Source of the DNA: an uncultured Eubacteriales bacterium
Lineage (GTDB): Bacteria > Bacillota > Clostridia > TANB77 > UBA1234
NCBI GenBank assembly: GCA_964394075.1
Contig: CAYMVI010000019.1
Span: forward strand, 1 to 12,695
DNA: 12,695 bases
Direction of reading: 5' to 3'
In this document: in pieces, positions 6,744 to 12,695 of the stretch
Layout of the letters: every line of letters starts with the position of its first letter
How positions within the stretch are numbered: position 1 is the stretch's first letter
Notes under the pieces: generated by a model
Database searches by the model: none
Seen by the model: only the letters and a program-made list of their open reading frames with translations
What the model was told of the DNA's origin: nothing
Made by a program: the position numbers and the translations under genes

Positions 6744-7274
6744 ATGGCAAAGATTATGGTTATCGTTGATTGTCAGAAGGACTTCATTGATGGTTCTCTG
6801 GGCACTCCCGAAGCACAGGCTATGATTCCCCGTCTGGTCGAGAAGATCAACGCCGAACCCGAAGATACAATGTTTATTTTCACCGCAGATACTCACGACA
6901 AGAATTATCTCAACACTCCTGAAGGTAAGAAACTGCCTGTTGAGCACTGCATTAAGGATACTGATGGCTGGCAGATTGACGGCCGTCTGGCTGAGCTGTT
7001 CAGCAATTCTCCCTTTGTCATTGAGAAGCCCACTTTCGGCTCTACTGAACTGATGGACTATCTGGATGATATGGTTAATATGGCTGATGAAATTGAGTTC
7101 GTTGGTCTTTGTACTGATATCTGTGTTGTTTCTAATGTTCTGATGGCAAAGGCAAATTTCTTCGATGTCGCTGAAATTTCTGTTGATTCCACCTGTTGCG
7201 CCGGTGTTACTCCCGCAAGCCACAAGATGGCTCTGGAAACTATGAAGATGTGTCAAATTACTATTAAGGAGTGA
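6744..7274 (+). CDS. pncA: Nicotinamidase/pyrazinamidase (PncA-type isochorismatase-family cysteine hydrolase)
   Basis: IMVIVDCQKDF matches PncA LIIVDVQNDF (catalytic Asp). TADTHD...VEHCIKDTDG matches the Asp/His/His metal site and the PPHCV motif of M. tuberculosis PncA. IEKPTFGS carries the catalytic Lys. FVGLCTDICV matches VVGIATDHCV (catalytic Cys). Optimal-codon style (ccc, ctg, aag). Confidence 0.8.
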   Translation: MAKIMVIVDCQKDFIDGSLGTPEAQAMIPRLVEKINAEPEDTMFIFTADTHDKNYLNTPEGKKLPVEHCIKDTDGWQIDGRLAELFSNSPFVIEKPTFGSTELMDYLDDMVNMADEIEFVGLCTDICVVSNVLMAKANFFDVAEISVDSTCCAGVTPASHKMALETMKMCQITIKE

Positions 7275-7282
7275 AATAAAGT

Positions 7283-8146
7283 ATGATTACTCTCTATGCT
7301 ATCAACACCGATGAAAGATTTGAAATTGAACAGGGTTCTTTCCCCGACGGCACGCTCCACATCAACCTGCCCGATAAGCAGATCTACGGCGTAAAGTGGA
7401 ATTATGAGAGTGATGCTGAACTTTTCACTTTGATTTGTATTGCAAAGCACTACAATAACCCTGACATGGATTTGTATCTGCCTTATATCCCTCATGCTCG
7501 AATGGATCGAGTAAAGGCAGATACCGATGTTTTCACTCTCAAGTATTTCTGTGATATCATCAACTCTCTGAATTTCAAGAGGGTCTGGGTTATGGATGCT
7601 CATTCCAATGTATCTCTGGCTCTGCTGAATAATGTTAAGCAGATGCATGTTGATGATACTATTTATGACGCTATCTATAAGGTAACTTGTGAAATTGCAG
7701 GCGGTTATGATCATCAGGAACGCATGGACGCTCAGGCTGATTTAGTCGTTTTCTACCCAGATGAAGGCGCTATGAAGCGCTATTCTGGCATGATTAATAT
7801 GCCTTATGCTTTTGGCATCAAAAAGCGTGATTGGGAGTCTGGTAAAATCCAAGGTTTGGATATCATGAACGGCGACTTGGTTAAGGGCAAGAATATCCTC
7901 ATTATTGATGATATTTGCTCTCGCGGAGGCACCTTCCTGCATTCTGCCAAGGCTCTTAAGGAAGCTGGTGCAAATCGCATCTTCCTATATGTAACCCATG
8001 CAGAGAGGGCTATGGTTGAGGGTGAGATGTATAGCTCCAGCTATAATATGAATGAAGATCTCGTTGAAAGAATCTATACAACGGATTCTATTTTCAATAT
8101 CGAATGGGATGACCGCAATAAGGTCACCATTGTAAATGAATTTTAA
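7283..8146 (+). CDS. prs: Ribose-phosphate pyrophosphokinase (PRPP synthetase)
   Basis: SD AAGGAG sits upstream. FPDGTLHINL matches FSDGEVNVQI. LPYIPHARMDRV matches IPYFGYARQDRR. VWVMDAHS matches VLTVDLHA. The PRPP-binding loop ILIIDDICSRGGTFLHSAKALKEAGANRIFLYVTHA matches [35 protein letters not shown]. Confidence 0.85.
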   Translation: MITLYAINTDERFEIEQGSFPDGTLHINLPDKQIYGVKWNYESDAELFTLICIAKHYNNPDMDLYLPYIPHARMDRVKADTDVFTLKYFCDIINSLNFKRVWVMDAHSNVSLALLNNVKQMHVDDTIYDAIYKVTCEIAGGYDHQERMDAQADLVVFYPDEGAMKRYSGMINMPYAFGIKKRDWESGKIQGLDIMNGDLVKGKNILIIDDICSRGGTFLHSAKALKEAGANRIFLYVTHAERAMVEGEMYSSSYNMNEDLVERIYTTDSIFNIEWDDRNKVTIVNEF

Positions 8147-8161
8147 GAAAGGAGCATATGA

Positions 8162-8611
8162 ATGACGCTCGAAATTTTACAGGCAGCTCGCACTGCCGCA
8201 ATGAAAACTGGCGACATGACTACTAAGAATGTACTTTCCAGTATGATTGATGCTTGTCAAAAGGCCGCAATCACTTCTAAAGGCCGTGTCGAAATTACGG
8301 AGCAACTGGTTGATGAAACCTTGATTAAATATCAGAAGACAATCCAAGAGATGATTGACACTTGTCCTGCCGATCGTACTGAACTGCTGGATAAGTATAT
8401 GATCGAAATGAAAGTTGTTAAGGAGTATGCTCCTCAGCTTATGACTGATCCCGAGGAAATTCGCATCAAGATTGCCGAGTTGCTTTCCGCCACTAACACC
8501 GAGGTTCTTGCGCAGAATCGTGGCAAGATTATGAAGTGTATCACCCCTTATTTCAAGGGTAAGGCTGATATGAAGATTGTCAGCCAGGTCGTTGCGGAGA
8601 TGCTGAAATGA
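8162..8611 (+). CDS. GatB/YqeY-domain protein
   Basis: Length and pattern match YqeY. LEILQAARTAAMKTGD matches LNEDLKAAMKAKD. The C-terminus PYFKGKADMKIVSQVVAEMLK matches PKVKGRADGKLVNQLVRKKL. SD AAAGGAGC. Stop overlaps the next ATG (ATGA). Confidence 0.7.
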   Translation: MTLEILQAARTAAMKTGDMTTKNVLSSMIDACQKAAITSKGRVEITEQLVDETLIKYQKTIQEMIDTCPADRTELLDKYMIEMKVVKEYAPQLMTDPEEIRIKIAELLSATNTEVLAQNRGKIMKCITPYFKGKADMKIVSQVVAEMLK

Positions 8612-10931: not shown

Positions 10932-10979
10932 ATATATATGAAGTAAAGGAATAAGAAATAAAGAAAGGACGGTAAGTTT

Positions 10980-11150
10980 ATGCATCAACATTTTATCAAA
11001 GGCAAAAAGCTGTTGCTAATTTACAAGGATGGCACTCAAGAGGTTGCTAAATATAGAGTGTCTGATAAAGGCGTTCTTTATTTCTCTGATCACGACCCTG
11101 TACCTTTAAGCAAACTGCGTTGTGCAGGTTATTATAAAGGAGGTCAGTAA
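10980..11150 (+). CDS. Hypothetical small basic protein, 56 aa (not in the ORF track)
   Basis: ATG 10980 is 10 nt after AAAGGA. Translation: MHQHFIKGKKLLLIYKDGTQEVAKYRVSDKGVLYFSDHDPVPLSKLRCAGYYKGGQ*. Stop TAA 11148-11150. Confidence 0.4.
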   Translation: MHQHFIKGKKLLLIYKDGTQEVAKYRVSDKGVLYFSDHDPVPLSKLRCAGYYKGGQ

Positions 11151-11420
11151 TTGTACGAAATGTATCCATATTCCGGTTATTGGCTATATACTCCAGAAGA
11201 AATTAAAAAGTTGCCAACTCGACAACTTTTAAAACATTATAGAGATATGCATCGCTGGTGGCATGGCGAATATGATTGGGACCCATTCGCAAAAGAGCGA
11301 TGGACTCAACACAAAGGGTATAAATCTCTTTTAAAAGCAGAACTTGATACAAGAGAACACATTCCCAATAAACAAGAAAGCAAAGCAATTCGTAAAGCTA
11401 AAATTAAGAAAGGTGTTTGA
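11151..11420 (+). CDS. Hypothetical protein, about 86-89 aa, Trp/Tyr-rich (start TTG 11151 or ATG 11160)
   Basis: SD AAAGGAGG 11136-11143. Same reading frame as the preceding small ORF, separated by a single TAA. No recognisable domain. Confidence 0.4.
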   Translation: MYEMYPYSGYWLYTPEEIKKLPTRQLLKHYRDMHRWWHGEYDWDPFAKERWTQHKGYKSLLKAELDTREHIPNKQESKAIRKAKIKKGV

Positions 11421-11425
11421 TAACT

Positions 11426-12695
11426 ATGGATTTTCGTCGAATGATTATGCTGTATAGCGATTCCTATAAGCAGTGCCATCCTCTGATGTATCCTGATAAT
11501 CAGGAGTTTTTGGTGTCTTATCTGACTGCCCGTAAGGCGATGAATGACAATTTCCCCAAGATGGTGGTTTGGGGTATTCAGCCTTTTCTGATGGATATGC
11601 ATAAGGGCTTTGAAGATTTCTTCAACCGCGATGATATTGAAGTGATGGCTGAGTATGACCATTATGTTGATGCTCATCTTGGCCTGGGTAATGTTGCTCG
11701 TAATCGTATTATGGAACTGCATGAGTTGGGTTATTTGCCCGTTGAGATTCGTGCAATCCCCGAGGGTTCTGTAATCAACATGGGCATTCCTCTGGTTGAG
11801 ATGCGCAACACCCATCCTCGTTTCGCATGGGTTATCCAGTGGCTGGAGTGCCTGCTCCAGACTGAAGTGTGGCCTATGTGTGCATATGCTACTGTTGGCT
11901 GGGAATATCATAAGGTCGCCGACAAGTTCTATTCTCAGACTGCGCCCGACGCCAATCCTTATATGGCAATGGCTGACTTTGGTTTCCGTGGTATGAGCTG
12001 TCTGGAAGATGCAACTCGTTGCTCTGCTTCTTGGCTTCTGTCTTTCAATAAGACTTCCACTATTCCCGCCCTGCCTTATCTGGATGATTACTACAATGCA
12101 CAGTGCGCCGAGCACAAGATTGGCATTGGCGCTGTTTCTACCGAGCACTCTGTCATGGCTGCCAACTATGCCATCGACGGCGATGAAATCACTTTCGTAA
12201 AGCGTATGCTGACTGAAATCTATCCCAATACCAGTTTCTCTATGGTATCTGATACCTACGACTACTGGAATATGGTGAATAACATTATCCCTGCCTGTAA
12301 GGAAGAGATTCTCGCCCACAATGGTAAGTTGCTTATTCGCCCCGACTCCGGTGATATGGTCGCCATTTCCATTGGCACTGTCCAGAAGCTGTGGGATGTA
12401 TTTGGTGGCACTATTAATGAGGCTGGTTACAAAGTTCTCGACCCTCATATCGGCTTGATTTATGGTGATGGTTGCACCCTGAATCGCGTTGAGCAGATTT
12501 ATGAGTCTCTCGAAAAACTGGGCTTTGCTTCCACTAATGTGGTATTCGGCGTTGGCGCTTTCTGCTTCCACGCTCTGTTCAGCCCCGATAATAAGTTCAC
12601 TGTTTTGACTCGTGACACTTGGGGCATGGCAATGAAAGCTACTTATGGTGTGTTTGGCGGCAAGGAAGTTCCCATTTACAAGGATCCTAAGACCG
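11426..12695 (+). CDS. nadV: Nicotinamide phosphoribosyltransferase (NAMPT/NadV), 3'-truncated by the window edge
   Basis: The frame is open from ATG 11426 to the window end. It is absent from the ORF track, which shows only the minus-strand shadow 11306..12571. Motifs: MLYSDSYKQCHPLMYP matches ILDTDSYKVTHYKQYP. EIRAIPEGSVI matches EVKAVPEGSVI. DFGFRGMS matches DFGYRGVS. EHSVMAA matches EHSTITA. MVSDTYDYWN matches VVSDSYDIYN. LIRPDSGD matches IIRPDSGN. IYGDGCTLNRVEQI matches IQGDGVDINTLQEI. NVVFGVGA matches NVSFGSGG. Confidence 0.9.
   Translation, partial: MDFRRMIMLYSDSYKQCHPLMYPDNQEFLVSYLTARKAMNDNFPKMVVWGIQPFLMDMHKGFEDFFNRDDIEVMAEYDHYVDAHLGLGNVARNRIMELHELGYLPVEIRAIPEGSVINMGIPLVEMRNTHPRFAWVIQWLECLLQTEVWPMCAYATVGWEYHKVADKFYSQTAPDANPYMAMADFGFRGMSCLEDATRCSASWLLSFNKTSTIPALPYLDDYYNAQCAEHKIGIGAVSTEHSVMAANYAIDGDEITFVKRMLTEIYPNTSFSMVSDTYDYWNMVNNIIPACKEEILAHNGKLLIRPDSGDMVAISIGTVQKLWDVFGGTINEAGYKVLDPHIGLIYGDGCTLNRVEQIYESLEKLGFASTNVVFGVGAFCFHALFSPDNKFTVLTRDTWGMAMKATYGVFGGKEVPIYKDPKT

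Follow-up and report, generated by a model that had tools for sequence, protein, structure and literature searches.

The 12,695-nucleotide stretch of DNA analysed here (the window; contig CAYMVI010000019.1 of assembly GCA_964394075.1, from an uncultured Eubacteriales bacterium) encodes a PncA-type nicotinamidase, a protein resembling the phosphoribosyl pyrophosphate (PRPP) synthetase Prs and a protein resembling nicotinamide phosphoribosyltransferase (NAMPT). We lean, with modest confidence, towards reading these genes as part of a variant of NARP1, a phage system for rebuilding NAD+, that would run through deamidated intermediates: PncA, an Adps-like pyrophosphokinase, a Namat-like transferase (the variant Namat) and NadE, with nicotinic acid adenine dinucleotide (NaAD) as the predicted intermediate. 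NAD+ depletion is among the commonest outcomes of bacterial anti-phage immunity, and the finding points to a further, sequence-defined and abundant branch of phage NAD+ reconstitution with a four-gene core. The three open reading frames lie where a preliminary description of the window had placed them and are as it described, namely:

6744-7274 (+), PncA-type nicotinamidase, 176 aa (Pfam PF00857)
7283-8146 (+), Adps-like pyrophosphokinase of the PRPS fold, 287 aa (PHROG 619)
11426-12695 (+), Namat-like transferase, first 423 aa, with about 67 aa beyond the window end
12548-12616 (+), clamp segment of the Namat-like transferase, GVGAFCFHALFSPDNKFTVLTRD

In NARP1, phage operons annotated as Prs plus Nampt do not make PRPP and nicotinamide mononucleotide (NMN); Adps converts ADP-ribose (ADPR) to ADP-ribose pyrophosphate (ADPR-PP), and Namat makes NAD+ in one step from ADPR-PP and nicotinamide (Osterman et al., bioRxiv 10.1101/2024.02.11.579819). 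Structures of the NARP1 enzymes have been reported (PMC12774641, PMC13586617).

Sequence comparison places the Prs-like protein in the phage Adps family, the ADP-ribose pyrophosphokinases of NARP1, and not among the cellular PRPP synthetases. In Pfam it reaches only 32 bits with Pribosyltran and stays below the cut-off of Pribosyl_synth; it belongs to phrog_619 ('ribose-phosphate pyrophosphokinase', 1e-64), and finds its best solved PRPP synthetase at only 57 bits. The Adps proteins of FADO and ICP1 were used as genetically or structurally validated references, and they too stay below the cut-off of all NCBIfam PRPS models; on TIGR01251 (cut-off 113 bits) the window protein scores 91, FADO Adps 96 and ICP1 Adps 98. 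Identity to these two is 33% and 30%, respectively, and the PP-loop of the window protein, DDICSRGGTF, resembles DDLSSYGGTF of FADO. Seven residues of ICP1 Adps (F18, R87, H121, D161, K185, D212 and D213) have been assigned by mutagenesis or structure to ADPR binding or transfer catalysis, and their equivalents are kept both in the window and in all 159 variant-associated Adps-like proteins. Moreover, the Prs-like and NAMPT-like proteins find their best tblastn matches in the same GenBank phage genomes, where the two genes are neighbours. The earlier assignment, in which Prs supplies PRPP, therefore gives way to an Adps-family protein that keeps the functional residues of that family.

The NAMPT-like protein carries the Pfam domains NAPRTase and NAMPT_N and belongs to phrog_448 ('nicotinamide phosphoribosyl transferase', 2.9e-138). 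When it was searched against the PDB, the best matches at 323 bits were 9W5X and 9W5W, which are SpβL1 Namat according to the depositors' paper; human NAMPT scored 154 and Xanthomonas NAMPT 146. Neighbour-joining trees put the true NAMPTs (human NAMPT and, from phages, two NARP2 enzymes whose genes lie beside one for an NMN adenylyltransferase, NMNAT) as the outgroup, with canonical Namat and the window's clade as sisters. By these sequence relationships the protein lies in the Namat lineage and not among the true NAMPTs, and it keeps the Namat catalytic core (D12, Y14, F185, R188, H241, R305, D307 and the TRD motif). The name NAMPT/NadV that it had received conflicts with the bit scores, with the tree and with the loss of the aspartate that specifies nicotinamide. 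We also note that 9KE8 and 9KEO, solved as 'nicotinamide phosphoribosyltransferase', reach 285 bits to the window protein and have GTDT and the clamp segment GVGAQTYQRNTRD.

That aspartate is D215 of SpβL1 Namat. In an alignment with SpβL1, FADO and ICP1 Namat and human NAMPT it corresponds to Ser211 of the window (nucleotides 12056-12058) and to D219 of the human enzyme. D215 hydrogen-bonds the amide of nicotinamide in SpβL1 Namat, and its replacement by alanine costs about 8-fold of the activity with nicotinamide. As reviews relate the work of Khan et al. (2006), D219 defines the substrate specificity of human NAMPT and D219S switches substrate affinity, and the structure paper on human nicotinate phosphoribosyltransferase (NAPRT) places Ser214 at the D219-equivalent position, 'directing specificity toward nicotinate'. 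Further key residues of the window (SpβL1 equivalents in brackets) are A183 (H187), K209 (G213), G235 (S239), S238 (A242) and L303 (V304). The segment GTDT, which holds D215, is replaced by KTST in the window, by NTAT in MT835544 and by RTAT in Phass-1, and two other variant lineages have alanine at the D215 position.

Across the loci surveyed below, every one of the 173 variant loci has Ser or Ala at the D215 position, and the 75 canonical loci without exception have Asp or Glu there. An unbiased scan of 403 aligned columns found nine that separate the Asp/Glu from the Ser/Ala group. The residues H191, G217, D219 and A244 of human NAMPT are described as pocket or tunnel residues beside the C3 substituent of the pyridine, and they are the counterparts of four of the nine columns (H187, G213, D215 and A242 in SpβL1). 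Three more of the separating columns (human K189, S241 and I309) presumably line the tunnel as well. The Asp of the 'DF' motif (ADFGFRG in the window) was also considered as the residue specifying nicotinamide and was rejected, since numbering gives D188/D192 for it and not D215/D219.

The nicotinamidase matches Pfam Isochorismatase (PF00857, E 5.4e-22) and phrog_19305 (5e-30), and its best solved relatives are all nicotinamidases or pyrazinamidases (1ILW, 3S2S, 3O90, 3PL1). Aligned to the Pyrococcus horikoshii pyrazinamidase/nicotinamidase 1ILW, it has the catalytic triad D9/K95/C127, and D49/H51/H68 fall on the Asp and two His of the metal site; within the isochorismatase fold, an Asp/His/His metal site is typical of nicotinamidases. 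Neither the triad nor the metal ligands nor F14 vary among 87 phage homologues, which represent 68 distinct sequences and range down to 40% identity. Thus both the catalytic Asp-Lys-Cys and Asp/His/His residues and the nicotinamidase-like look ascribed to this protein beforehand were borne out. It scores 22 bits on the NCBIfam equivalog NF008623, against a cut-off of 174.

Homologues of this PncA occur in only 13 GenBank phage records, and it is 42-58% identical to pncA products on bacterial-looking scaffolds. Four records deposited as 'Bacteriophage sp.' (MT835512, MT835706, MT835572 and MT836195; loci L007-L010) are probable bacterial chromosome fragments: by their N-termini the neighbouring products are PolA-, dephospho-CoA kinase-, PrfA-, response-regulator- and MATE-like, and a PncB was confirmed by Pfam. 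As candidates for a phage PncA without NARP1 they were rejected on account of these bacterial-looking neighbours, and they were used solely to establish relatedness to cellular pncA. In L009, 13 nt separate the PncA homologue (42% identity) from the gene after it, which encodes a PncB with NAPRTase_N, NAPRTase and NAPRTase_C domains. Because this homologue directly precedes a canonical PncB, it supports the view that the window encodes a genuine nicotinamidase related to host pncA.

The window ends within the transferase gene, and searching metagenome contigs with a 32-mer from that end brought up two, L004 and L005, with transferases 89-93% identical. After the transferase, L004 carries a Macro-like gene, NadE (NAD_synthase, 7e-48) and a gene for a NADAR protein; L005 has the same order and a SIR2-family gene upstream. 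The order is found again in L016, an IMG/VR contig showing 73-85% nucleotide identity to the window and collinear with it for the greater part of its length. A Macro gene directly downstream and then NadE are present in 9 of 9 relatives at least 81% identical to the full-length L004 transferase (L004, L005, L014-L018, L176 and L177). The window, L005 and the 5 kb that follow in L004 gave no NMNAT-like match, nor did the stretches of ±10 kb in L014-L016 and L018. The NMNAT gene previously expected just beyond the window is therefore unsupported, since the stretches after the transferase in L004, L005 and L016 hold none and the close relatives carry Macro and then NadE there. L017 and the genome contig L176 each have a NadM-like gene near the module. 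A Myxococcus phage Mx1 protein annotated as NMNAT turned out to be a P-loop AAA_28 protein, and its match in L017 is therefore no NMNAT; L017 carries this AAA_28 protein besides its NadM-like gene.

The Macro that follows the variant Namat is homologous (about 30% identity) to the one directly following Namat in canonical NARP1 loci, and it is found in this position in most K-S-S loci. A Macro gene is present in about 80% of loci of the window's type. Macro and NADAR genes flank NadE downstream of the transferase (L004 2565-4367, L005 10-1868, and most IMG/VR relatives). NADAR enzymes are ADP-ribosyl-guanine hydrolases, and the Macro protein has a weak match to the DarG model. Besides supplying ADPR to the pathway, the two together could undo the ADP-ribosylation of DNA by toxins of the DarT type. 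The SIR2-family protein of L005 (3760-4527 (-); Pfam SIR2, 8e-48) lies next to the module, and of the 85 loci of the window's type, 8 have such a gene there, among them L005, L014, L017, L026, L054 and L064. Yeast Pnc1 relieves the inhibition of Sir2 by nicotinamide, and a phage sirtuin beside a nicotinamidase recalls that pair.

The wider distribution of the module was surveyed in 80 IMG/VR loci related to the window's transferase, 80 loci related to FADO or ICP1 Namat, 80 loci from species-representative genomes, and references, each scored for pocket residues and for neighbours within 8-10 kb. Relatives numbered 554 in IMG/VR and 313 in species-representative genomes; the best 80 of each were examined, and all of these were of the variant type. 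Where Asp or Glu stands at the D215 position with Ala at A242 (75 loci), there is no PncA and no NadE, and Adps is present in 71. Where Ser or Ala stands at D215 with Ser at A242, the 93 viral and reference loci include PncA in 87, NadE in 83 and Adps in 87, and the 80 genome contigs include them in 70, 63 and 72, respectively. Overall, 157 of the 173 loci of the Ser/Ala type carry PncA and 146 carry NadE, and most of those without one or the other end at a contig edge. In these sequences the pocket substitutions are strictly associated with PncA and NadE. A PncB-type NAPRT was found in none of the 173 variant loci.

The variant module is hosted by phages, prophages and genome bins of gut Clostridia, an example being a prophage-like region of the isolate Lachnospiraceae bacterium A4. 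Its commonest layout is a compact operon of PncA, Adps, variant Namat and NadE, with Macro and NADAR optional. Gene order varies by lineage: PncA comes first in the window, in Phass-1 and in most loci, and last in MT835544, where Adps, the Namat-like gene, Macro, NadE and PncA lie within about 5 kb. In Phass-1, PncA, Adps, the Namat-like gene, a gene for a 139-aa protein and NadE follow one another with overlapping stop and start codons. Linkage to PncA and NadE persists to about 32% Namat identity, with sub-lineages about 32-48% identical to each other. Several independent origins of the pocket switch were considered and rejected, as the trees show essentially one clade.

The enzymatic activities, nicotinate specificity, NaAD product and counter-defence role that we propose are predicted from sequence, and they would combine as follows. 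A host NADase effector (SIR2, TIR and similar) would split NAD+ into ADPR and nicotinamide. PncA would hydrolyse nicotinamide to nicotinate and NH3; the Adps-like enzyme would convert ADPR and ATP to ADPR-PP and AMP; the variant Namat would join ADPR-PP with nicotinate to give NaAD and pyrophosphate; and an NH3-dependent NadE would re-amidate NaAD to NAD+. By the established enzymology of the two families, the PncA reaction yields ammonia, and a NadE with one domain and of such a size would belong to the ammonia-dependent type. A Macro of the Adpp kind would convert ADPR-1''-phosphate to ADPR and so feed the Adps step, as in NARP1-AP. These four enzymes would close a route from both NADase products, so no step would be missing. 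It is an evenly balanced question whether the central reaction, ADPR-PP plus nicotinate to NaAD, bypasses both NAPRT and the nicotinic acid mononucleotide (NaMN) adenylyltransferase, making a four-enzyme deamidated NARP. The variant may have arisen because hosts quickly deamidate or lose the released nicotinamide, which would make canonical NARP1 useless. The preliminary description was thus right in outline when it proposed an NAD+ reconstitution module against NAD+-depleting immunity, and wrong in assigning it to a pathway through PRPP and NMN, given the Adps, the Namat lineage and the lack of a downstream NMNAT.

Preiss-Handler salvage consists of PncA, PncB, NadD and NadE, and the module could be a mononucleotide route of that kind, in which the Adps-like enzyme would make PRPP, the variant Namat NaMN, and host NadD or a phage NadM NaAD, which NadE would turn into NAD+. 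The nicotinate-type pocket, PncA and NadE fit such a route equally well, and it gains from the PRPP-dependent activity of Namat in vitro, from the remodelled adenine clamp in the window's clade and from the NadM-like genes inside the module in about 12 loci. We nonetheless consider it rather unlikely. The Prs-like protein belongs with the Adps enzymes, and that of SpβL1 yielded no product in an assay of the PRPP-synthetase type; more than 90% of loci lack the adenylyltransferase step though the flanking steps are encoded; and PncB is never present among the 173 variant loci. In addition, the Macro of the ADPR-1''-phosphate phosphatase kind in most K-S-S loci makes sense only if ADPR is consumed, and Phass-1 pairs a nicotinate-type pocket with a canonical adenine clamp, GIGAYTYQYVTRD. 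Among the explanations offered beforehand for the nicotinamidase, a Preiss-Handler-type route with a NAPRT encoded elsewhere came closest to the evidence in that a deamidated route is indicated.

It is also conceivable, if improbable, that the module is an ordinary NARP1 with helpers, in which the variant Namat would use nicotinamide and ADPR-PP while PncA and NadE, with which the host pathway begins and ends, boost Preiss-Handler salvage of surplus nicotinamide by the host; alternatively, PncA might remove nicotinamide for another reason, such as relieving the inhibition of a phage sirtuin. The SIR2-family genes present in some loci (8 of 85 of the window's type) would suit this, as would the placement of PncA and the variant Namat in different transcription units in the window. 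However, it leaves unexplained why loss of the amide-binding Asp and three further pocket changes track PncA and NadE over 248 loci with no exception. It also sits badly with the about 8-fold drop in nicotinamide activity of SpβL1 D215A, and PncA would compete with Namat for nicotinamide. The NARP2-type scheme of the preliminary description, in which Prs makes PRPP, NAMPT makes NMN, a downstream NMNAT makes NAD+ and PncA goes unexplained, agrees with the Pfam domain names and with the NMNAT-like genes in a minority of related loci. We regard it as very improbable: true NARP2 NAMPTs have G(S/M)GGxLLQ and an adjacent NMNAT and form the outgroup in the trees, the nicotinamide-binding Asp is absent, and the stretches searched for NMNAT in L004, L005, L014-L016 and L018 hold none.

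Several observations weigh against the NARP1 variant through NaAD. The published signature of the Namat clamp helix is GSXΦXΦXΦTRD, that is, G-S-arom-Φ-X-Φ-arom-Φ-T-R-D (PMC12774641). The window lacks it, reading GVGAFCFHAL+FSPDNKFTVL+TRD with Ser391 replaced by Ala; a 10-aa insertion makes the aromatic at position 7 uncertain, and loop residue R40 is Met. The first clamp aromatic is kept (F379, SpβL1 F392), a position at which NAMPTs have Gly. Phass-1, of the same variant group, has the clamp GIGAYTYQYVTRD, which matches the signature apart from Ser to Ala. Because the window clamp departs from the signature, use of ADPR-PP is less certain for the window than for Phass-1. SpβL1 Namat keeps PRPP-dependent activity in vitro, and formation of NaMN is therefore chemically plausible. 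The residues that distinguish Adps from PRPP synthetases are too poorly defined, so that synthesis of PRPP by the window enzyme is possible.

The composition and history of the module raise further doubts. NadE and Macro are predicted for the window's own phage from relatives whose Namat is 81-93% identical. A NadM-like adenylyltransferase (CTP_transf_like, GRFQTFHKGH) lies inside the module in about 12 of the 173 variant loci (L017 14252-14794; L020 9380-9958; L066, L068, L080-L082, L089, L172, L176 and L208), and such loci may run a parallel mononucleotide branch. As the trees gather the variant into a single clade, or two at the very most, the perfect co-variation of pocket and gene content amounts to one or two evolutionary events and not to many independent ones. 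Finally, the advantage of spending a second ATP on a detour through nicotinate is unexplained. Speculatively, Clostridia hosts might deamidate nicotinamide quickly and leave nicotinate available; charged nicotinate might be kept in the cell while nicotinamide diffuses out; removal of nicotinamide might serve the phage sirtuin present in some loci; or NaAD might be a poorer substrate for immune NADases.

Phage NAD+ reconstitution as described in the literature searched to August 2026 comprises NARP1, NARP2 and NARP3, together with a Macro phosphatase extension and the RyDEP accessory of NARP1 and two structural papers. Full-text searches to that date, with incomplete coverage, returned no report linking NARP pathways to nicotinamidase, NadE, nicotinate or NaAD and no account of NaAD formation from ADPR-PP and nicotinate, and the Phass-1 paper annotates the genes of the module without comment.

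With NARP1 the window shares an Adps-family enzyme of the PRPS fold near a Namat-lineage enzyme of the NAMPT fold in a phage or prophage context, the functional residues of Adps and the catalytic core of Namat. It differs in having Ser for the amide-binding Asp, in the replaced equivalents of H187, G213 and A242, and in the insertion of 10 aa in the clamp helix; the variant core has four genes, PncA and NadE being added, and the predicted product of its transferase is NaAD and not NAD+. Because two sequence features that define Namat are lacking, the variant should not be filed as plain NARP1. NARP1-AP adds to NARP1 the Macro-domain ADPR-1''-phosphate phosphatase Adpp (bioRxiv 10.64898/2026.01.28.702374). 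The close relatives of the window resemble it in having Macro directly after the variant Namat. Unlike in NARP1-AP, however, Macro occurs in about 80% of window-type loci, compared with the 15% reported for NARP1, and it is accompanied by NadE and often by NADAR, all outside the window.

Like the Preiss-Handler pathway of Clostridia hosts, the variant begins with PncA, ends with NadE and would pass through deamidated NaAD, whereas its middle two steps are predicted to be replaced by Adps and the variant Namat acting on ADPR; none of the 173 loci has PncB and more than 90% are without a NaMN adenylyltransferase. NARP2 (NAMPT plus NMNAT; Vibrio phage KVP40, Xanthomonas phage LucasX and Myxococcus phage Mx1) likewise employs a phage enzyme of the NAMPT fold to rebuild NAD+. 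In contrast to the window, its enzymes keep the Asp, have a GxGGxLLQ phosphate loop and are encoded beside an NMNAT but with no Adps partner; the phage NARP2 controls read GMGGxLLQ with GTDT or GSDT, and the window reads GVGAFCF... with Ser211.

If confirmed, the central step would be a new enzymatic reaction in NAD metabolism, and the pocket changes amount to a residue-level prediction of a substrate switch from nicotinamide to nicotinate. The deamidated route would explain a phage nicotinamidase that seemingly destroys its own substrate, and it suggests that the range of counter-defences open to a phage is shaped by how its host metabolizes nicotinamide. For annotating these modules in gut viromes, the combination of PncA, NadE and a Ser or Ala in place of D215 could serve as a simple marker.

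All genes of the window lie on the + strand. The remaining features around the module, in which promoters and terminators are consensus matches and not mapped transcripts, are:

6654-6682 (+), terminator with a 13-bp stem and T-run, at the start of transcription unit 1 (sequence pattern)
6685-6713 (+), promoter-like site directly after the terminator, TTGATT-17-TATAAT with TG (consensus match)
8162-8611 (+), YqeY-like protein, directly after Adps (Pfam 4.5e-18)
8608-8880 (+), orf90, passenger gene after Adps
8880-9755 (+), Thg1-like tRNA-His guanylyltransferase (Pfam/PHROG)
between the Thg1-like and membrane protein genes (+), orf158 and orf78
10483-10869 (+), membrane protein, last passenger gene before the second terminator
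10872-10902 (+), second terminator
10903-10931 (+), promoter-like site TTGATT-17-TATAAT with TG, which with the second terminator starts unit 2

The genes for PncA and the Prs-like protein are 8 nt apart and have a terminator/promoter pair directly upstream, and for these reasons they are taken to head one unit, which also holds the YqeY-like, Thg1-like and small genes (8162-10869). Two small open reading frames stand between the second promoter-like site and the transferase gene. The two terminator/promoter cassettes (6654-6713 and 10872-10931) are near-identical, and the T-tail runs into the promoter-like site. Unlike in most relatives, in which the genes are contiguous, Adps and the variant Namat of the window are 3.3 kb apart on the same strand in different transcription units. 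Because PncA, Adps and the variant Namat adjoin one another in most relatives, the genes at 8162-10869 appear to be lineage-specific insertions, and by this comparison they are outside the conserved core. Megablast of GenBank phages found no near-identical DNA to the window, an exact 50-mer search of IMG/VR gave no match to it, and exact-protein look-ups for a longer contig returned only Logan contigs of 1.1-1.6 kb.

Upstream of the module, a serine hydroxymethyltransferase (SHMT) gene (5150-6409; Pfam SHMT, 1.9e-135) has a good ribosome-binding site and an ATG at 5150, and an in-frame TAG at codon 13 (nucleotides 5186-5188). The 17 complete genes of the window end in TAA (11) or TGA (6) and never in TAG, and its + strand contains 52 TAG triplets compared with 272 TAA and 351 TGA; no tRNA was found in the window. 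The TAG could reflect amber recoding, as in the code-15 phage Phass-1, a pseudogene or a sequencing error. The SHMT gene and the following 79-aa open reading frame look like an insertion, because they are absent from the collinear L016. A protein of 809 aa (2653-5082) has major vault protein domains (MVP_shoulder 1.2e-22, Vault_3 1.5e-08), unusual for a phage, and its gene is conserved at the DNA level in L016, L014 and L017.

Other neighbours concern RNA. The window encodes an RNA-ligase-like protein of 464 aa (128-1522; weak Pfam RNA_ligase) and the Thg1-like protein, and L004 has an AAA_33 kinase and metallophosphatases downstream (5939-7016), which together suggest that a set of tRNA repair genes adjoins the NAD+ module. 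In Bacillus phage FADO, 2.2 kb separate Thg1 from NARP1, and in the viral sets 12 variant and 4 canonical loci have Thg1 close to the module. The YqeY-like gene (8162-8611) is found again near the module in 8 of the relatives closest to the window.

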